Positions 4,381 through 64,000 of a stretch of 64,000 bases of DNA are shown piece after piece (within the stretch, counting starts at the first letter, position 1; every line of letters starts with the position of its first letter). The position numbers and the translations under genes are program-made. The notes below the pieces were generated by a model, which was not told the origin of the DNA, did not search any database, and saw only the letters and a program-made list of their open reading frames with translations. This DNA comes from Escherichia phage teqhad, in the sequence record NC_054933.1. The stretch is one strand, 5' to 3'.

Positions 4381-4967
4381 TATTGCATTCCGATTACGAA
4401 AAACTGTGGACGAGTAATACCACCAATGCAACATTTACTATTACAGCAGTAGTGTACAGTGTCAATATGGACGCTATAAATCTTATCCATATCAGGAGAT
4501 TTGACAGGCTCATCAATTATATACAAAATTCGCGAAAGCGATAAACCTCTGAACTTGCTTCCTTTATTACCAATAAAACTGCGTACAGAATCAGTAAATA
4601 AACGAAAACGTATATCATCATTAGAATAACGCGAAAATTCCTTTTTAATGTTATTTGCAGAAATTTTAGCGTAAGCTGAAGTATTAGAAAGAACAATAAC
4701 TGTTCCGCCATCATACAGCCAATTAGCAGCAAAGTTAGTCACAGCAATTGATTTACCAGATTGACGTCCACCATCTATACGAAGTGTGCAGTACTGTTTA
4801 AGTAATTCTTCAAATGGCGGGATATATTCGTTTTTACAAATTTCTTCTACTCTAGCATCAGAATGGTGTGTAAAAGCATTCATCAGGGATAGATAAGGAC
4901 CAGTTAAAAATGTTCTCATTTTATTCTCTCTAAATTTGGGCCATTCCATGGCGCATGAATTGTCCAT
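4380..4967 (-). CDS. hypothetical P-loop-like protein
   Basis: GGRQSGKS Walker-A-like motif and ILYIIDEP Walker-B-like motif; probable true start at MRTFLTG. Confidence 0.5.
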   Translation of the reverse strand: MDNSCAMEWPKFRENKMRTFLTGPYLSLMNAFTHHSDARVEEICKNEYIPPFEELLKQYCTLRIDGGRQSGKSIAVTNFAANWLYDGGTVIVLSNTSAYAKISANNIKKEFSRYSNDDIRFRLFTDSVRSFIGNKGSKFRGLSLSRILYIIDEPVKSPDMDKIYSVHIDTVHYCCNSKCCIGGITRPQFFVIGMQ

Positions 4968-5060
4968 TTCTGTATTTACCCATTACCGCACTCAGGCTCG
5001 ACCTTATTACAGGTTGGCGGGAATCCCTCATAGAATCATGAGGTCCAGGCTGTTCCCATA

Positions 5061-5534
5061 TTATTTGAACGATTTAACGTACTGAATAGAACCTTTACTA
5101 TTTACAAAGGCAATTTTACCATTTTTATTATACATGGTAGCAGTACGTTGATAACCATAAGTTTGTTTACCAGATTGATAACCAACTAATGCGAAATTAT
5201 CTTCGCCCATTTTATTCTGTTTAGCGCGAATGCGTTCATGACCATGTGCCATAAGAACCTTAGCATCACCGGTTGCAATGGATCTACGAGTTTTTTCATC
5301 TTCAACTGTATTAACAAAGTCGTCAAATGAATCAAATTTAGCATGAGATTTATTATACAGTTTTCCATCTACTGCATAATTATATCCCTGTACATCCATC
5401 TCAACTTCTGTACCATCATCCAATACAGCAGTGATTTTTTGACCTTTTTTAAATTTCAAAAGATCAGTAAAAGATTCAGCAATAATTTGAGAATTAATAG
5501 CTGCTTCAGTGATAAATTCTTGATATGTTTTCAT
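5061..5534 (-). CDS. internal protein (IP) family, capsid-targeted
   Basis: N-terminus MKTYQEFITEA matches the conserved T-even IP capsid-targeting sequence with ITE|A and IAE|S gp21-type cleavage sites. Confidence 0.65.
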   Translation of the reverse strand: MKTYQEFITEAAINSQIIAESFTDLLKFKKGQKITAVLDDGTEVEMDVQGYNYAVDGKLYNKSHAKFDSFDDFVNTVEDEKTRRSIATGDAKVLMAHGHERIRAKQNKMGEDNFALVGYQSGKQTYGYQRTATMYNKNGKIAFVNSKGSIQYVKSFK

Positions 5535-9812: not shown

Positions 9813-9855
9813 AATGTTTTCCTTGTGATGATAAGTCTATAGTAACGCCTTCATA

Positions 9856-10020
9856 CTTAGATGTAAACTATTTCAACATCGCCTTTTGCTGTTTTATAAC
9901 CTTCAGCCCAAGATACAACCGAGTTTTTATCTGAAGATTCAAATTCTGGCATTGGGCTTTCGCCAATGTTCACGCAGTATGTTTCTTCATTTTCGTCGAA
10001 CCAAATAATTAAAGTAGTCA
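9856..10020 (-). CDS. small hypothetical protein (about 54 aa), below the ORF-track cut-off
   Basis: Read by eye: MTTLIIWFDENEETYCVNIGESPMPEF... Confidence 0.3.
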
Positions 10021-10089
10021 TTTATTTCTCCGTTTCTGTATTTGTTTTGATAAGTCTATAATAACACCATCCTTGGTGTTTGTACACAA

Positions 10090-10416: not shown

Positions 10417-10561
10417 GGATGTAAACCGTTTTGTGAAAAAATTTTTAAAAAGTTTTGGGGAATTCTAGGGCAGGAAGGGGAAATCAAAGGATAGGATAAT
10501 ATATTATAAAGGGTAGAAACTAAATGATGTCTAGAGAGGCCCGGAAAGGCCTAGATACCAA

Positions 10562-10590
10562 AAAGCCCCAACCTTTCGGCTAGGGCTAAG
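10562..10590 (-). terminator. rho-independent terminator hairpin downstream of the IP-like gene
   Basis: Plus-strand aaaagccccaacctttcggctagggct; the minus strand reads a GC hairpin followed by a T-run. Confidence 0.6.
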
Positions 10591-10594
10591 AATG

Positions 10595-11068
10595 TTATTT
10601 GATTTGTTTAGCAGACCAAATGCGATCTTTAATAATTTTTTGGATGTCTTCAACATACTCTAGGTCATGAGCATGTGGATTATCTTTGAAACTATGAGCT
10701 CGCGCAAGTTTCTGGCCTTCGGTCTTAATTATCAAAAGTTCTTTAAGAATTGCTTCATACCTAGAGATAATTCCTTTAGCAATATTTTTTTCTTGTGCTG
10801 CTTTAGGGTCAGCCTTAGGAGCAGGTTTACCTGAAGCCTTTGCAAAAGCAGCTCCAGTAGCAACTAAACTTTTCCAGGCCATACTAACTGCATTTCCCGT
10901 AAATCCTTCTGCTTTCATGTCGCGAGCAAATTGGAATCGTGATTCATCAGAAGCATCTTTATAGGAATATTTACCCGCTGCAATGGCTGCTTTTGCGACA
11001 GCTTGAATTTCGGTGCTAAACGCTTCATTTAACACCGCTTCATTTAAAAATTGAGTATATGATTTCAT
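10595..11068 (-). CDS. internal-protein-like protein with a divergent capsid-targeting N-terminus
   Basis: MKSYTQFLNEAVLNEAF resembles the IP CTS MKTYQEFIAEA; Ala- and Lys-rich body. Confidence 0.55.
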   Translation of the reverse strand: MKSYTQFLNEAVLNEAFSTEIQAVAKAAIAAGKYSYKDASDESRFQFARDMKAEGFTGNAVSMAWKSLVATGAAFAKASGKPAPKADPKAAQEKNIAKGIISRYEAILKELLIIKTEGQKLARAHSFKDNPHAHDLEYVEDIQKIIKDRIWSAKQIK

Positions 11069-11118
11069 CTTATTTCCTGTTTTAATTTGTAGATTTAATA
11101 TACTTATTTATACTAAAA

Positions 11119-11146
11119 AGCCCCAACCTTTCGGCTGGGGCTAAGC
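11119..11146 (-). terminator. terminator hairpin, near-identical copy of the one at 10562..10590
   Basis: aaaagccccaacctttcggctggggct. Confidence 0.55.
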
Positions 11147-11149
11147 CTT

Positions 11150-11455
11150 GCGGCAACCTTGTCGGGGTTCCACCTGCTAAGGCAAGTGTTTGTACGAAAC
11201 GCCGGGATTCGAACCCGGTTATCAAGCAGTTGACGCTACTCAATATTTTTAAAAGGCCATATCTCGACCATATCCGAACGTTCCGTCAAAAACGCTACTC
11301 GGCTTACGGCAAAGATATTTCCTCGAATCGATAATTCGGTGCGCCGTTTCTGCTGTGATGTAAGGGGATATTAACAAATCATAAAGATTTATTAAGACCA
11401 GTCCTTACTCAGGGAACATCAGTCCGACGTCTTGCCGGTAGCGACCCGGCTTCTT
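11150..11455 (-). ncRNA. possible small stable RNAs of the tRNA cluster (T4 rnaC/rnaD-like)
   Basis: Non-coding stretch downstream of tRNA-Arg with a T-arm-like gggattcgaaccc at about 11211..11227 and paired termini (cgaaacg / cgtttc); position parallels T4 species 1 and 2 RNAs. Confidence 0.25.
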
Positions 11456-11458
11456 GTT

Positions 11459-11534
11459 TGGTCGAGGCAGTAGGGATCGAACCTACGACCCAGGACTTAG
11501 AAGGTCCTTGCTCTTCCTTCTGAGCTATGCCCCG
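11459..11534 (-). tRNA. tRNA-Arg (anticodon UCU)
   Basis: Cloverleaf read by eye on the minus strand; T-arm gtagg-gatcgaa-cctac; anticodon loop CUUCUAA; encoded CCA. Confidence 0.7.
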
Positions 11535-11538
11535 TAAT

Positions 11539-11614
11539 TGGGGTGACCGATGGGAGTCGAACCCATGACTACGAGAATCACAATCTCGAGTTCTACCAAC
11601 TGAACTACGGCCAC
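11539..11614 (-). tRNA. tRNA-His (anticodon GUG), tentative
   Basis: T-arm atggg-agtcgaa-cccat; anticodon loop UUGUGAU; discriminator C73. Confidence 0.5.
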
Positions 11615-11728
11615 ATTAATACCTACTCCAACAATCAAGATGTCTTCACACGAAATTAAGAGAAGAGTGATCAGTTCAACCCCTATAATCGCGTCAAGTA
11701 GATATTAATGTGACAGTTGTCACAAATT

Positions 11729-11803
11729 TGGCGGACGTGATAGGATTCGAACCTATAACCAATCGCTTAACAGGCGATCGCTCTGCCATTGAGCTACACA
11801 TCC
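11729..11803 (-). tRNA. tRNA-Asn (anticodon GUU), tentative
   Basis: T-arm atagg-attcgaa-cctat; anticodon loop CUGUUAA. Confidence 0.55.
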
Positions 11804-11807
11804 AAAT

Positions 11808-11894
11808 TGGTGGGGAGTGGTGGAGTCGAACCACCCGAGTCGCAATGACAATGGATTTACAGTCCACACCGCTACCTCTACGGGATAACTCCCC
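11808..11894 (-). tRNA. tRNA-Tyr (anticodon GUA), class II with long variable arm
   Basis: Anticodon loop CUGUAAA; long variable arm; overall pattern parallels E. coli tRNA-Tyr. Confidence 0.6.
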
Positions 11895-11907
11895 TTAATT
11901 CTTAATT

Positions 11908-11982
11908 TGGTGGCCCTGGGTGGAATTGAACCACCATCTGGCGATTATGAGTCGCTTGCTTGAACCTTCCAGCTACAGGGCC
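11908..11982 (-). tRNA. tRNA-Ile (anticodon CAU, presumably lysidine-modified) or tRNA-Met
   Basis: Anticodon loop CUCAUAA; acceptor ggccctg/cagggcc; T4 tRNA-Ile also carries CAU. Confidence 0.7.
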
Positions 11983-11983
11983 T

Positions 11984-12059
11984 TGGTGCTGATTGACGGA
12001 ATCGAACCGCCGACCTTCTCATTACAAGTGAGTTGCTCTACCTACTGAGCTAAATCAGC
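11984..12059 (-). tRNA. tRNA-Thr (anticodon UGU)
   Basis: Anticodon loop CUUGUAA; T-arm ggcgg-uucgauu-ccguc. Confidence 0.75.
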
Positions 12060-12064
12060 AAAAC

Positions 12065-12154
12065 TGGCGGAGGCGATAGGATTTGAACCTATGAGTCGCC
12101 GGAGCGACTGCCGGTTTTCAAGACCGGTGCATTAAACCACTCTGCCACGCCTCC
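12065..12154 (-). tRNA. tRNA-Ser (anticodon UGA), class II
   Basis: Reverse complement reads GGAGGCGUGGCAGAGUGG...CUUGAAA...GGUUCAAAUCC...CGCCUCCGCCA, matching T4 tRNA-Ser as recalled. Confidence 0.85.
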
Positions 12155-12156
12155 AG

Positions 12157-12230
12157 TCTCCATACAAGGATTTGAACCTTGGACCTCCTGATCCCAAATC
12201 AGGCGCTCTACCAAACTGAGCTACACGGAG
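12157..12230 (-). tRNA. tRNA-Pro (anticodon UGG), no encoded CCA, abuts tRNA-Ser
   Basis: Anticodon loop UUUGGGA; T-arm caagg-atttgaa-ccttg; 3' end 2-3 nt from the tRNA-Ser 5' end. Confidence 0.75.
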
Positions 12231-12240
12231 TAAATTAAAT

Positions 12241-12314
<74 letters not shown>

Positions 12315-12319
12315 AAATT

Positions 12320-12406
12320 TGGTGCGAGAAGTGGGACTCGAACCCACAAGGAAATCATTCCGCAGCATTTTAAGTGCTGTGCCTTTACCAATTTGACCAT
12401 TCTCGC
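12320..12406 (-). tRNA. tRNA-Leu (anticodon UAA), class II
   Basis: Reverse complement reads GCGAGAAUGGUCAAAUUGGUAAAGGCACAGCACUUAAAAUGCUGCGG...GGUUCGAGUCCCACUUCUCGCACCA. Confidence 0.85.
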
Positions 12407-12412
12407 TCTATA

Positions 12413-13045
12413 TTATTTATTACGTGAAAAAGATTGTTCTATCAATTCTGGACACTTTCGTTCTATCCATTTTCTAGCTTTTTGTGGGCTTATACCTATT
12501 ATTTTAGCAGCTTTACTAACCCATCCAAATTTAGAATAATCGATTTTAACTAATTCTTCGTAAATTTCATCAGTTAAAATCTTTTCATTAATATTTACCA
12601 GTAAATGATATAATTTATTATCATTAGCAATTTTAATGAATCTTTTATAGTTTCCGCCTTTACTTAAACCTAATGAAGTAATTGCAGATGATATAGTAGC
12701 CGAATTTAATAATGCGTTTAAAATTTCTTCATCACTAACATTATAACGCTTTTTATTATTTTTAATATTTTTACCAGCAAAAGTATCAGTTTGCGAATGG
12801 CAATTTGGACATAATAATCTTAAATTTGATTTAAGATGATTTTTATTATTTCCATCAATATGGTCTAATTGCAGAACAATATGCTTATTTTGCCATTTTG
12901 AAATTTTACAAATTGCACACTCATATGGAAAAATATTTTCTTTTATTATTTTGTCTTTCAGCTTTCCTGTACTAAAATTTGGATGTTTTCCTTCAAAAAT
13001 TTCAGCTAATTTAGTATCCATAATATAATTCCCAATTATTAACAA
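12413..13045 (-). CDS. free-standing HNH homing endonuclease with C-terminal helix-turn-helix
   Basis: HNH core LQLDHIDGNNKNHLKSNLRLLCPNCHSQTD; C-terminal WVSKAAKIIGISPQKARKWIER HTH-like; probable true start at MDTKL. Confidence 0.8.
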   Translation of the reverse strand: MLIIGNYIMDTKLAEIFEGKHPNFSTGKLKDKIIKENIFPYECAICKISKWQNKHIVLQLDHIDGNNKNHLKSNLRLLCPNCHSQTDTFAGKNIKNNKKRYNVSDEEILNALLNSATISSAITSLGLSKGGNYKRFIKIANDNKLYHLLVNINEKILTDEIYEELVKIDYSKFGWVSKAAKIIGISPQKARKWIERKCPELIEQSFSRNK

Positions 13046-13120
13046 AGGCTCTCAAACAAGAGCCCTTGATGATAGAGGGTATTAATCAGTGCGGTATGAG
13101 TTAATAATAACAAATAATTC

Positions 13121-13645
13121 TTAAAGCAAATTAAACATTTTAACGGTCGGCAAAACAATTTCTTCTTCTATATAAGAGTATTTAACACTCTCAACTACAC
13201 GCAAAAAATCATAATCATAATACTCAGAAGCATTACCTAAAATATTAATAAGTCCTTCAAGCACTTTATTACCATTCACAAAGAATAAGTCAAATACACG
13301 TTCTTCGTCTTCTTCGGATTTATTACCAAGGTCAACTTCTATGTCAAAGACCTTTTTAATGAATTCTGGATAAAGTTGTTCTGAGAACAGTCCTTCAACC
13401 AAGTATTCATAAATAAAAAGCGATTGCTCGCTGAACAAGCCATTACCACAATAACGTTCAGCTTTAGTACTAGAATGTCTGCTTTTAAACTTCTTTAAAA
13501 GATATTGGAATTGTAAGATTTCATGCTCTTCTACGCCAAACAGTGTTTTAGTTTTATAGTTGTCACCATCATTTTCCCAGGTAGTGACATCAATTACGTA
13601 ACCCTGCGGAATTGTAGTACCTAAACAAATATTCATTTTCACCAC
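13121..13645 (-). CDS. hypothetical protein (174 aa)
   Basis: ORF track; acidic, no recognised motif. Confidence 0.5.
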   Translation of the reverse strand: MVKMNICLGTTIPQGYVIDVTTWENDGDNYKTKTLFGVEEHEILQFQYLLKKFKSRHSSTKAERYCGNGLFSEQSLFIYEYLVEGLFSEQLYPEFIKKVFDIEVDLGNKSEEDEERVFDLFFVNGNKVLEGLINILGNASEYYDYDFLRVVESVKYSYIEEEIVLPTVKMFNLL

Positions 13646-13929
13646 GCTGCATTAATATACGTTTTCTGAATACATTCAAGACCCAAAGGATTCTTGAAAA
13701 TATCATATTCAAGAGGACCTTTTTCTGTTTCAATAAAGAAATCAAAATTTACTGTATTAAATTTACGGTCTTCCTTCACTAATTTAACCTGAGAAGATGA
13801 ACGGTCAATGTAAACCTTTTCAACTTCAAAACATGTTAAAATGCCATAATCATCAATCAAGGCTTTAGCTGCTTCTTGATCATATTTATATCCATTTTCA
13901 ACGGATGATACTTTAGCATAAAGAATCAT
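13639..13929 (-). CDS. hypothetical protein (96 aa)
   Basis: ORF track. Confidence 0.5.
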   Translation of the reverse strand: MILYAKVSSVENGYKYDQEAAKALIDDYGILTCFEVEKVYIDRSSSQVKLVKEDRKFNTVNFDFFIETEKGPLEYDIFKNPLGLECIQKTYINAAW

Positions 13930-14528: not shown

Positions 14529-14586
14529 TTTATTCTCCTCAGTAGTAGATAGGGTAATAGTATCACTACCCTATCTAAAAGTAAAC
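14529..14586 (-). promoter_or_regulatory. early-promoter-like element (copy 1 of a repeated module)
   Basis: Minus strand reads aagTTTAC-(18 nt)-TACTAT...gaggagaataaaATG; the 22-mer gatagggtaatagtatcactac recurs at 14850..14871. Confidence 0.4.
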
Positions 14587-14838
14587 TTATTTTTTACGAA
14601 AAATTGATTTATATTTATCAGCCCATTTCTCGATGACTTTTTCTGGTCCATAGATAACAAAATAATCACCAAACTCTTCACCACCGAGTTGACCGAAATT
14701 ATCTAATGCATCACGAAGAACTCCATGAGGCATTTCGCCCATTTTATCTTTCTTACCAATGTAAATAAACTCAACTTTTACATCAGCAGCTTCAGCAATA
14801 AATTCTTGATACGTTTTCATTTTATTCTCCAATTTCAC
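14587..14838 (-). CDS. ipI: internal protein I (IPI)-like, capsid-targeted, with a divergent effector domain
   Basis: Internal ATG gives MKTYQEFIAEA, an exact IP capsid-targeting sequence; position next to 57B parallels T4 ipI; the mature part is unlike T4 IPI as recalled. Confidence 0.7.
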   Translation of the reverse strand: MKLENKMKTYQEFIAEAADVKVEFIYIGKKDKMGEMPHGVLRDALDNFGQLGGEEFGDYFVIYGPEKVIEKWADKYKSIFRKK

Positions 14839-20621: not shown

Positions 20622-21150
20622 TATACTTCCAATGAGCGCTGATTTAGGAGAATCCATGGAAGGTTCTTCTATCGACGTCACCTTTACCGCTCAATTAGAA
20701 ACAGGTGAAACGTTAGTATCTATAAATATAACTAGTTACGAAGAAACTCCTGGGGTTTTAGTAGAAGAAAATCGCTTATATGGAACATATGAATCTGTAT
20801 TTGGTTTCGGAAATGATGCGTTGAAATATCGTTTAGGCGATGAATTTAAAACTGCTGCTTCATGGGAAGAACTTCCTACTGATTCTGATACTCAGCTGTA
20901 TTTGTGGAAAGCTCCTCAAAATCTCCAGAAGACATTCACTTACGAAGTAACATTAATATATGACTACCAAGAACAAAGTGAATCTGGAGGTTCTGGCAGT
21001 AATTCTAGGTCATCTTCTGATACTACTGAACCGACAGATCCTCCTGCTCCAGTAAGAAAAACTCTCGTTAAAAATTATACTAAAACTATAGTTGGAAATT
21101 GGAGTCGTTGGGCTAATAAATTGAGAAGCTATGTGTATGAGAGGCCATAA
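20593..21150 (+). CDS. 5.1: gp5.1-like protein
   Basis: Track ORF of 185 aa; true start probably an internal ATG; Ser/Thr-rich C-terminus. Confidence 0.7.
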
Positions 21151-21444
21151 ATGTCAGGATTAAGTTATGATAAGTGTGTTACTGCTGGCCATGAAGCGTG
21201 GCCTCCAACAGTTGTGAATGCTACACAAAGTAAAGTATTCACTGGAGGAATTGCTGTTCTCGTAGCAGGTGATCCAATTACAGAACATACAGAAATTAAA
21301 AAGCCATATGAAACACATGGCGGAGTGACACAACCCAGAACTTCTAAGGTATATGTCACTGGAAAGAAAGCTGTTCAAATGGCTGATCCAATATCATGCG
21401 GTGATACTGTGGCTCAGGCATCATCTAAAGTATTCATTAAATAG
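21151..21444 (+). CDS. 5.4: PAAR-repeat spike tip protein gp5.4
   Basis: 97 aa, immediately before gene 6. Confidence 0.85.
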
Positions 21445-46880: not shown

Positions 46881-46894
46881 TCTTTGACGATTTA

Positions 46895-46925
46895 AGGGAC
46901 CTTCGGGTCCCTTTAGTTGTTTTTA
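46895..46925 (+). terminator. terminator after gene 23
   Basis: gggaccttcgggtccc hairpin followed by a T-rich tract. Confidence 0.65.
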
Positions 46926-46928
46926 TGG

Positions 46929-46936
46929 TATAAATA
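46929..46936 (+). promoter_or_regulatory. late promoter TATAAATA upstream of gene 24
   Basis: TATAAATA about 28 nt before the gp24 ATG. Confidence 0.6.
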
Positions 46937-46963
46937 AATCATATAAACCAAAAGGAAAGCGCA

Positions 46964-51681: not shown

Positions 51682-51694
51682 AATATTTCCTCAG

Positions 51695-51702
51695 TATAAA
51701 TA
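51695..51702 (+). promoter_or_regulatory. late promoter TATAAATA upstream of uvsW
   Basis: TATAAATA about 30 nt before the uvsW ATG. Confidence 0.55.
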
Positions 51703-51731
51703 TAGATATATTTATTACATGGTATTTAGAC

Positions 51732-62148: not shown

Positions 62149-64000
62149 CTACATTTTGAACTTTTTAGACATTCCGTTGATGTTAACCAAAGAAGCCAAG
62201 ATTTGAGAAACTTCGTTTTCCTCTTCTTTTGATTCTTCTACAAGGAATTGATTAAATCCAGCCATTGGACGAACTTCACCAGTTTCCATTAGATGGTCGC
62301 CATCATATACCGATTCCTCTAATTGTTCAGAAGGAGGAACGATTGTACCTTCTATTAGATACTTGTTATAAGCAGTTTCTTTCATAAAGTACGTGCTCAC
62401 TTTATTAATCTTCAGTAAAATTCCACGCGGTAGAATAACTTCAGCTTCTGATGGAAATCCTGATAAATGACCTGGAACGATAACTTTGATTCGCTCAGCT
62501 CCTTTAATTACCATACCCACGCTAGTTTCAGCATCTTCATTAGCATATGTAGAATGACTACCCATATGCATCAAATCTTCTGCATCAACGGAACCTTCTC
62601 CTTCGCCAGAAAATACTGCGCCGGAATCATCTAGAGCCATATAGTTTTTACCGTGCTCACCGAAAATATTTGGTTTAAGCGATGTGGATACGAAGTTCTT
62701 GAAATAGAACATTTTGTTTTCAATATTATGACGCAAAGTTTTAAAGGTAACTTCTTGTCCACGGTAAAGTGTAGTTCCTGGAGGAAGAACTGAACCTTTA
62801 GCGAATGCAGAATCAAGCGTCTCGATGTGTTTAATAGCTCGTTCCATATATTCTTCACGGGTAGAATCTGGTTTACCCAAAAGGAACGAGTTCATTTCAA
62901 CATATGAATCTGCACAATAATCTTCAATTACGTCAGATTCAGCCTGAGTTAATCCTTTTGGAGTTACTTCAGTACTTGCATATTCATATGCCTGAGCGGC
63001 AGATTCATTAATCAATTTATAAATGCCATTCATGACAAATTGAATAATAGCTGTCTTTTCATCTGGCGTAGCTTTAGAACCTTTAGCTAAATCATTGACA
63101 ATTTTCTTAATAACATCAAAACTATTAGAAATATTAATATCAGCAAGATCGCTTAAAATTTTATCAGTTTTATAATCAAAGAATTCTTTATTCTTTAAAT
63201 ATTCTTGAGAACCTTGATATGTTATATCGCTCTGCAGCTTGATAGATGGATCGCGTAAACGTGCATGGGCCAATGCAATATGATTTCGGAAGTTTTCTAG
63301 TTCATAATCGTTAGATTTAAAACGAGAAGCACTTCTCATACCACCGATAGCTCCTTTGCTAAAGTTTGAACCAATCTGAATAACGCCAGAGTTCATCGGA
63401 CCTTCTGCTTTATATACCGGAACTTTAGATTCAAACTCTTGATATTTCTTAGCAGCGAAGCTATCACCCTGAAGTGAAGCATCAACAGTAGAATATTGAG
63501 CTTGTGCTGCTAATCGACGACTAATTTTAGTTTTCTGAATAACAGCTTGATCCGTGCGCTTATCATTTTCTAAAGCAATAGAAGCAGCAACAGCGACAGC
63601 TTTAGGAACAGCATTACCTGTTTTAACGTCTACATAAACATCACCAACCTTTGATTCAACTTTTGTGAATAACTCAGTTGAAATAGGAGGTACACCTGGA
63701 ATGTCTTCTAAATTGGCATTTTTACGGTAAACCATAATATATGCATATTTCTTATCATAGTCCCAGATTTCCTTTAAAAGAACATATCGACCTGCTCCTT
63801 TAGTACGTACTAAACGGTCAGCAATAACTTGCATTTGACGAGCTGCGCCATTTGTTTTACTTTTTAGTACGCGGAATAGGCATGCGTCGATTTTATACTG
63901 TTTCATTGTTTGAAGAGCAGTATCAAAAACAGCATTAATGACGCCAATTGGATTTCCACCCAAGTTTCTAAGCTTGACTAACGATAATTTCTCGTTGACA
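62149..64000 (-). CDS. alt: Alt ADP-ribosyltransferase, C-terminal part (N-terminus lies beyond the window end)
   Basis: Over 600 aa in frame reaching the window edge; the track start is a non-ATG internal codon; position after gene 54 as in T4. Confidence 0.85.
   Translation of the reverse strand, partial: VNEKLSLVKLRNLGGNPIGVINAVFDTALQTMKQYKIDACLFRVLKSKTNGAARQMQVIADRLVRTKGAGRYVLLKEIWDYDKKYAYIMVYRKNANLEDIPGVPPISTELFTKVESKVGDVYVDVKTGNAVPKAVAVAASIALENDKRTDQAVIQKTKISRRLAAQAQYSTVDASLQGDSFAAKKYQEFESKVPVYKAEGPMNSGVIQIGSNFSKGAIGGMRSASRFKSNDYELENFRNHIALAHARLRDPSIKLQSDITYQGSQEYLKNKEFFDYKTDKILSDLADINISNSFDVIKKIVNDLAKGSKATPDEKTAIIQFVMNGIYKLINESAAQAYEYASTEVTPKGLTQAESDVIEDYCADSYVEMNSFLLGKPDSTREEYMERAIKHIETLDSAFAKGSVLPPGTTLYRGQEVTFKTLRHNIENKMFYFKNFVSTSLKPNIFGEHGKNYMALDDSGAVFSGEGEGSVDAEDLMHMGSHSTYANEDAETSVGMVIKGAERIKVIVPGHLSGFPSEAEVILPRGILLKINKVSTYFMKETAYNKYLIEGTIVPPSEQLEESVYDGDHLMETGEVRPMAGFNQFLVEESKEEENEVSQILASLVNINGMSKKFKM

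Follow-up and report, generated by a model that had tools for sequence, protein, structure and literature searches.

The head of the tRNA gene cluster of Escherichia phage teqhad (NC_054933.1) carries a swap, not a simple insertion: a 619-bp cassette that encodes an HNH endonuclease stands where relatives lacking this gene have tRNA-Gln. The gene belongs to a class already known from T-even and T5-like phages, the free-standing HNH homing endonuclease genes, and comparison with homologues makes it likely that its product is an active enzyme of the T5 hegA (F-TflIV) clade, with the tRNA-Gln gene as its putative target. All coordinates below refer to the window, that is, the whole stretch of 64,000 nucleotides that was analysed. 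The window is collinear with positions ~60.2–123.2 kb of T4 (NC_000866) at 89–98% identity (blastn), and in the phage collection it comes closest to genomes of Tequatrovirus, for example those of a51, MLF4, R5505, CM8 and Killian.

The cassette (12407–13025, ends placed to within ~3 nt) was delimited by alignment A1 and blastn as a stretch of unrelated sequence that HNH-less relatives do not have. In the alignment with R5505 and RB18, it stands in place of nucleotides ~10–73 of the tRNA-Gln gene, and blastn to T4 puts the junctions at T4 72459 with 12409 and T4 72522 with 13026. In R5505, RB18 and T4, tRNA-Gln(UUG) is located directly upstream of tRNA-Leu. Alignment A1 also identifies, in the window, a nine-base remnant of the 5' end of tRNA-Gln (TGGGAATTA; 13026–13034, minus strand). 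Downstream of the cassette, homology restarts exactly at tRNA-Leu(UAA), which is untouched: the gene is intact (12320–12406, minus strand; ARAGORN, and Rfam with 59.3 bits) and 100% identical to that of R5505. The tRNA cluster of the window comprises ten genes (11459–12406, minus strand), for tRNA-Leu, Gly, Pro, Ser, Thr, Met(CAU), Tyr, Asn, His and Arg (ARAGORN and Rfam). No tRNA-Gln was detected in the window by ARAGORN, nor by Rfam at E ≤ 0.1, and an Rfam scan of 10500–13300 at a permissive threshold returned the ten tRNAs only.

Several other features at the opposite end of the cluster vary among these phages or appear to be misannotated. R5505, RB18, CM8, a51 and KarlGJung have an insert of ~364 bp between an rnaD-like RNA and tRNA-Arg (window 11378–11458), which encodes a 117-aa ORF of unknown function and is missing from both T4 and the window. 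Two small ORFs (11082–11243 and 11249–11377, minus strand) are called as proteins in some relatives but are probably RNA genes, since they are found inside a stretch (11110–11504) that aligns to the T4 region with the stable RNAs rnaC and rnaD (species 1 and 2).

The first-pass annotation assigned the endonuclease to 12413–13045 and counted 210 aa from a TTG codon. This ORF is present on the minus strand, but its 5' end is 24 nt too long; the gene most likely starts at the ATG at 13021 and encodes 202 aa (MDTKL...SRNK; 12413–13021 including the stop codon, minus strand; delineated from the ORF and PHROG 14736). We adopt this start because the PHROG 14736 profile (202 positions) is matched at 202/202 from ORF residue 9 to the end (E 6e-124), the annotated relatives in GenBank all call the gene as 609 bp, homologues at 58–68% identity begin at the equivalent Met, and the TTG at 13045 falls within the 3' arm of a conserved hairpin. 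The TTG start was dropped given that the profile and all homologues begin at the ATG, and the first eight codons of the longer frame (13022–13045, minus strand), which are upstream of the starts of the profile and the homologues, are probably untranslated. The identical 202-aa protein is present in many phage records and in cluster P0001. At the other end, the stop codon (12415–12413) precedes the 5' end of tRNA-Leu (12406) by six bases, so the gene indeed abuts this tRNA as initially described.

The protein consists of an intact HNH/zinc site followed by two helix-turn-helix (HTH)-like modules that are predicted to bind DNA. The core, at residues ~30–85 (12767–12934, minus strand), contains the full signature CxxC...DH...N...CPNCH and matches the beta-beta-alpha-metal fold of the HNH (His-Me finger) endonucleases. 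In the alignment of 36 sequences, that is, the protein and 35 homologues, the zinc-site cysteines C35, C38, C71 and C74 (two CxxC pairs) are invariant, as are H54, N66, N73 and H75 along with W43, G57 and P72, and D53 is nearly so. Among the matched PHROG families, 13 of 14 are annotated as HNH endonuclease or endonuclease VII and the remaining one has no assigned function; no GIY-YIG family is among the Pfam or PHROG matches. The Pfam HNH family PF01844 scores below its gathering threshold (17.2 bits, with 21.4 required; E 0.0057), which we read as a sensitivity limit and not as evidence against membership in the HNH superfamily, given that several close homologues have a precomputed PF01844 match and that the PHROG HNH matches are strong. 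Foldseek and a sequence search of the PDB with this protein yielded nothing significant. The HTH-like modules (residues ~95–135 and 150–199; 12425–12739, minus strand) were delineated from the structural model, Pfam and the alignment: the AlphaFold model built from the homologue alignment (mean pLDDT 90.4) has helices at 97–134 and 151–199, Pfam HTH families match weakly at residues 172–200, and the motif GW..(K/E)(A/V)(A/S)KI.G..PQK is conserved in the C-terminal region. The original description as an HNH enzyme with a C-terminal HTH is thus borne out, with two such modules instead of one. The gene is under purifying selection: dN/dS is 0.11–0.28 between lineages, and six Tequatrovirus copies differ from that of the window by 25 synonymous and 4 non-synonymous substitutions in sum.

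The endonuclease complement of the window differs from that of T4, as had been proposed, in that four seg genes are absent and one HNH gene is present. The T4 positions were taken from the table of Edgell et al. (PMC2988022) and the NC_000866 annotation, and comparison with T4 confirms the absence of segB, segC, segD and segE. The individual sites, which were all said to be empty and, for segC, segD and segE, reduced to short spacers, require some correction. Spacers of 83 and 50 nt are indeed found in place of segD, between genes 23 and 24 (46881–46963), and of segE, between inh and uvsW (51682–51731), the latter pair, and not hoc and uvsW, being the flanks of segE in T4. At the segC site, however, genes 5.1 and 5.4 are joined directly, with the 5.1 stop at 21150 abutting the 5.4 start at 21151 on the plus strand and no spacer between them; both segC and gene 5.3 are missing, and blastn joins T4 80217 to 80775 at window position 21152. 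The segB position is not empty either: in T4 this gene is located between tRNA-Ile and tRNA-Arg, and the window has tRNA-Tyr, Asn and His in the same slot (11539–11894, minus strand; tRNA calls and T4 comparison); in RB18 and CM8, a SegB-like gene takes the place of tRNA-Pro. The HNH gene shares the tRNA cluster with segB, as suggested, but a location in the segB slot was ruled out: the two places are ~0.5 kb apart, at either end of the first tRNA sub-cluster, and relatives have tRNA-Gln where the HNH gene is.

Across the 64 kb, no homing-endonuclease-like gene other than this HNH gene was found; mobD is located just beyond the window edge. No second endonuclease was found in any window segment that does not align to T4 (484–856, 5062–5502, 9824–10057, 10590–11109, 13141–13656, 14567–14798 and 62169–63858); these segments contain small ORFs, internal-protein-like ORFs, ORFs of unknown function and an Alt paralogue. 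The latter is an Alt-like ADP-ribosyltransferase of at least 604 aa (62149–63963, minus strand), at a place where no more than two fragments, alt.-1 and alt.-2, are present in T4.

A 960-bp query that extends from tRNA-Gly to the upstream spacer detected the cassette in 62 records of the phage collection, each time as one uninterrupted match with identical junctions, and always at this site. A query for the tRNA-Gln state, which consists of tRNA-Leu, tRNA-Gln and the spacer of R5505, covered 446 records at the threshold of at least 80%, whereas HNH carriers were covered only to ~75% and in two pieces. This shows that the cassette and tRNA-Gln are alternative states of one Tequatrovirus locus, in proportions of roughly 12% and 88%; the gene is not conserved at this site in all relatives, in keeping with the initial view of a mobile endonuclease complement. 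The carriers include the named Tequatrovirus species cm8, pyps2t, gee9062 and lutter, their recorded hosts are Escherichia, Shigella, Salmonella and Yersinia, and one of them, Bas37/KarlGJung, is a phage of the BASEL collection isolated on E. coli K-12.

The cassette of the window is 97.8–99.7% identical to those of CM8, a51, Killian, KarlGJung and ES12, despite only ~85% identity in the adjacent trna.2–4 in several of these carriers; identity to the window is only 95% in the tRNA block that borders the Killian cassette on its other side. Conversely, R5505, the closest relative by flanks with 98–100% identity on both sides, lacks the cassette. The genomic backgrounds are diverse as well: the cassette occurs together with a T4-type segB in Killian, together with a SegB-like gene at tRNA-Pro in CM8, and without a SegB-type gene in the window, a51 and KarlGJung, and it is found with or without an upstream ORF of 174 aa. 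Near-identity of the cassette between diverged flanks and on several backgrounds is the pattern that would be expected of a horizontally spreading element and not of vertical inheritance with loss. The 174-aa ORF itself (13121–13645, minus strand; PHROG 2290, unknown function), located between trna.2 and the HNH gene, is missing from T4 as well as from some 50 of the 62 carriers and represents a second presence/absence polymorphism beside the cassette.

The HNH gene forms an ORF of its own between the upstream spacer and tRNA-Leu, outside any intron or intein, and Rfam detects no intron family in 10500–13300. Among the Tequatrovirus carriers, neither tRNA-Leu nor the 95-nt upstream spacer shows an HNH-linked haplotype, implying that co-conversion tracts in these two segments, if formed, are short or have been erased. 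IMG/VR was of no use as a population sample: scans for the protein and for a tRNA-Leu pattern yielded three loci only and no relative.

Full-length homologues are encoded in three metagenomic contigs, L008 (68% identity), L009 and L010 (58% each), where they are syntenic with the gene of the window, following gp2, gp3, gp1, 57A/B and trna.4–2 and heading the tRNA cluster. L009 and L010 resemble Erwinia phage Cronus (Roskildevirus), and their cassette replaces the Cronus locus L019 895–1116, which includes tRNA-Gln(TTG) and a further ~100 nt. The similarity of L008 is to Klebsiella Marfavirus phages, among which the collection contains no carrier of the HNH gene; compared with PWKp18, the L008 cassette replaces tRNA-Asn, which adjoins tRNA-Gln. 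The cassettes of all three lineages therefore replace or border tRNA-Gln, and the outgroups PWKp18 and Cronus have the tRNA-Gln state. In L008, the left junction falls within tRNA-Gln: the 240 nt upstream contain 2 differences, and from about nucleotide 26 to the 3' end the tRNA gene has ~12 differences, many of them compensated stem changes, and still scores as a good tRNA. This looks like a co-conversion tract, that is, a substituted tRNA-Gln allele that would travel with the endonuclease gene. The sampled distant homologues show a similar affinity for tRNA genes, with 6 of 7 located within 200 nt of one, namely those of T5, Enterococcus phage Bop, the jumbo phages 7t3 and KP13-7, and the T4-like PEi26 and avDM4; the seventh, that of Staphylococcus phiSA12, does not follow this pattern.

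Additional observations were made in the course of these comparisons. Unannotated ORFs of 154–156 aa in avDM4 (Aeromonas; L023:1027–1491) and PEi26 (Edwardsiella; L022:1000–1470) combine an N-terminal HTH with the HNH core and head the tRNA clusters, their 3' ends overlapping the next tRNA gene. The tRNA-Gln genes of R5505 (L001:2268–2341) and RB18 (L002:2839–2911) differ by 8–9 nt, all in the anticodon stem-loop and including a compensated stem swap, compared with 0–2 nt in each of the other shared tRNAs, and changes of the same kind distinguish the tRNA-Gln of L008 (3911–3986) from that of PWKp18 (L018:813–885). This anticodon-arm variation could represent escape from the HNH enzyme or from host anticodon nucleases. 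In L008, ~400 nt of non-coding and seemingly G+C-rich DNA (4604–5009, equivalent to L018:980–1390) separate the HNH/tRNA-Asn position from tRNA-Met; the stretch is ~99% conserved with PWKp18 over the ~310 nt compared and may be an undescribed structured RNA, although it matches no Rfam family.

As for expression, a candidate T4 middle promoter can be read from the sequence at 13104–13130 (minus strand), where TTTGCTTTA is followed after 12 nt by TATTAT; the former resembles a MotA box, and phage Lutter has a promoter annotated at the equivalent place. A scan for sigma-70 promoters and terminators was uninformative for a T4-type transcription unit. The HNH gene would probably be transcribed with the tRNA operon from this promoter, ~85–110 nt upstream, and the 3' end of its mRNA would be made by RNase P cleavage at tRNA-Leu. 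The hairpin mentioned above (11 bp; 13043–13068, minus strand) is also conserved in HNH-less phages. The tRNA-Gln remnant contains a GGGA, 8 nt upstream of the HNH ATG, that may serve as a ribosome-binding site. In the predicted RNA fold of 13015–13100 (minus strand; z −2.7), the GGG of the remnant and the HNH AUG are paired with upstream sequence, a weak indication that long-range pairing might limit initiation of HNH translation. Occluded translation has been described for other T4 endonuclease genes.

A homing mechanism can be proposed from these observations. In a mixed infection, the HNH enzyme would nick or cut the HNH-less allele in or near the tRNA-Gln gene, a target suggested indirectly by the position of the cassettes of all three lineages, and recombinational repair from the HNH-positive genome would copy the cassette in, deleting tRNA-Gln. 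Neighbouring markers of the tRNA region would be carried along, resulting in localized marker exclusion. A carrier such as teqhad would be immune as its target is gone, whereas the carrier represented by L008 would owe immunity to the substituted allele of the linked tRNA-Gln. Free-standing endonucleases of T-even phages often cut tens to hundreds of bases away from their insertion sites, so the target need not be tRNA-Gln itself. It is also possible, although only tentatively proposed here, that the whole clade is specific for tRNA-Gln genes and crosses between T4-like genera, here Tequatrovirus, the Klebsiella Marfavirus-type contig and the Erwinia Roskildevirus-type contigs, either erasing tRNA-Gln or forcing compensated, nuclease-resistant alleles; such crossing would be possible because the target is a conserved tRNA gene.

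Homing is not the only process that could scatter the cassette across backgrounds, because ordinary recombination among co-infecting T-even phages, which recombine freely, could do the same. The cassette might then be ancestral or have spread by homologous recombination alone, with the nuclease as a passenger or an inactive relic, and the absence of an HNH-linked flank haplotype beside it is compatible with such a history. We nevertheless regard this as very unlikely: tRNA-Gln is both the majority state and the state in the outgroups PWKp18 and Cronus, which makes the cassette the derived one, the catalytic residues are invariant with mostly synonymous differences elsewhere, and the cassette is more conserved than either flank. 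Even more improbable, to the point that we give it hardly any weight, is a sequence-specific DNA-binding regulator of the tRNA operon that merely retains an HNH-like fold. The two HTH-like modules and the location of the gene within the tRNA transcription unit would suit a regulator, but the full set of HNH catalytic residues and zinc ligands is invariant across 36 homologues, and the sporadic distribution does not fit.

The observed purifying selection is also relevant to a third possibility, namely that the nuclease does not home, or has ceased to do so, and is retained because it benefits the phage. Purely selfish elements are not typically under strong purifying selection, which leaves room for a function of this kind, for example damage to competing phages in co-infection or SegB-like breaks that amplify a tRNA/anti-defence locus. 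Three diverged T4-like lineages have retained homologues at this locus, and SegB itself has recently been reported to amplify the tRNA-segB locus, aiding escape from Septu (PMC13096335). However, only ~12% of the Tequatrovirus records carry the HNH gene, and they do so at the cost of a tRNA gene, whereas the near-identical cassette between diverged flanks is what horizontal spread predicts. We therefore consider a phage-useful job unlikely as the sole explanation, although it is compatible with homing. An active homing endonuclease remains the preferred reading.

Among known systems, T5 hegA (F-TflIV) is the closest named relative (35% identity over 170 aa, residues 16–184, E 2e-22; tblastn coverage 84%). 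Both proteins combine the CxxC...DH...N...CPNCH core with a final HTH-like module and both genes are free-standing among phage tRNA genes, next to tRNA-Ile in T5, where F-TflIV was reportedly described by Akulenko et al. in 2004 (pmid 15456135, cited in PMC2330249 and PMC5714182) as a free-standing HNH endonuclease of the T5 tRNA region. The protein of the window is shorter at the N-terminus (202 vs 227 aa), contains the middle HTH-like module that is missing in hegA (31 gap positions), and belongs to a phage of the Straboviridae and not the Demerecviridae; its gene, unlike hegA, visibly replaces a tRNA gene. T4 SegB resembles it in being free-standing, in the same tRNA cluster, absent from close relatives and located where others have tRNAs. 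The preferred cleavage site of SegB is within the tRNA-Asn gene, and the enzyme brings inheritance of the tRNA region to nearly 100% in T4 x T2L crosses (PMC2330249); we propose this type of cleavage and inheritance, by analogy, as a working model for the HNH enzyme. SegB is, however, a GIY-YIG enzyme of an unrelated nuclease family and occupies the tRNA-Ile/tRNA-Arg slot instead of the slot found here; genes for the two endonuclease types coexist in Killian and CM8. The T4 MobA–E genes are likewise free-standing HNH genes of T-even phages that vary among relatives (PMC2988022, PMC2790892), but their loci differ. Judged by record counts they are probably not close: tblastn with the HNH protein retrieved 237 records in all, compared with more than 1,100 T4-like records that share the region, which argues against a match to the widespread Mob genes at E ≤ 1e-5. 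In GenBank, the gene is already named an HNH endonuclease in many records, and "F-TflIV" in two. Our literature searches found no paper that characterizes it or notes the tRNA-Gln replacement, only general papers or papers on SegB and T5.

Intron-less homing and localized marker exclusion have their classic model in the T-even phages, in whose tRNA cluster, to our knowledge, only the GIY-YIG enzyme SegB has been studied. The HNH gene described here is a second, unrelated endonuclease at this cluster, and ~500 sequenced genomes that have either tRNA-Gln or the HNH gene, never both, amount to a natural experiment. Annotation pipelines should expect HNH genes in the places of tRNA genes and should take into account that several relatives have unannotated HNH ORFs that overlap tRNAs. 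Phage tRNAs are now viewed as counter-measures to tRNA-cleaving host defences. SegB is reported to reshape a tRNA locus linked to counter-defence (PMC13096335). If the homing endonuclease is indeed specific for tRNA-Gln, this would set a selfish element against the tRNA-based counter-defence of its phage and could explain the hypervariable anticodon arm of tRNA-Gln in otherwise near-identical clusters. An element that homes at the expense of a tRNA gene, deleting it as it spreads, would thus represent a testable conflict between a selfish gene and the phage that carries it.
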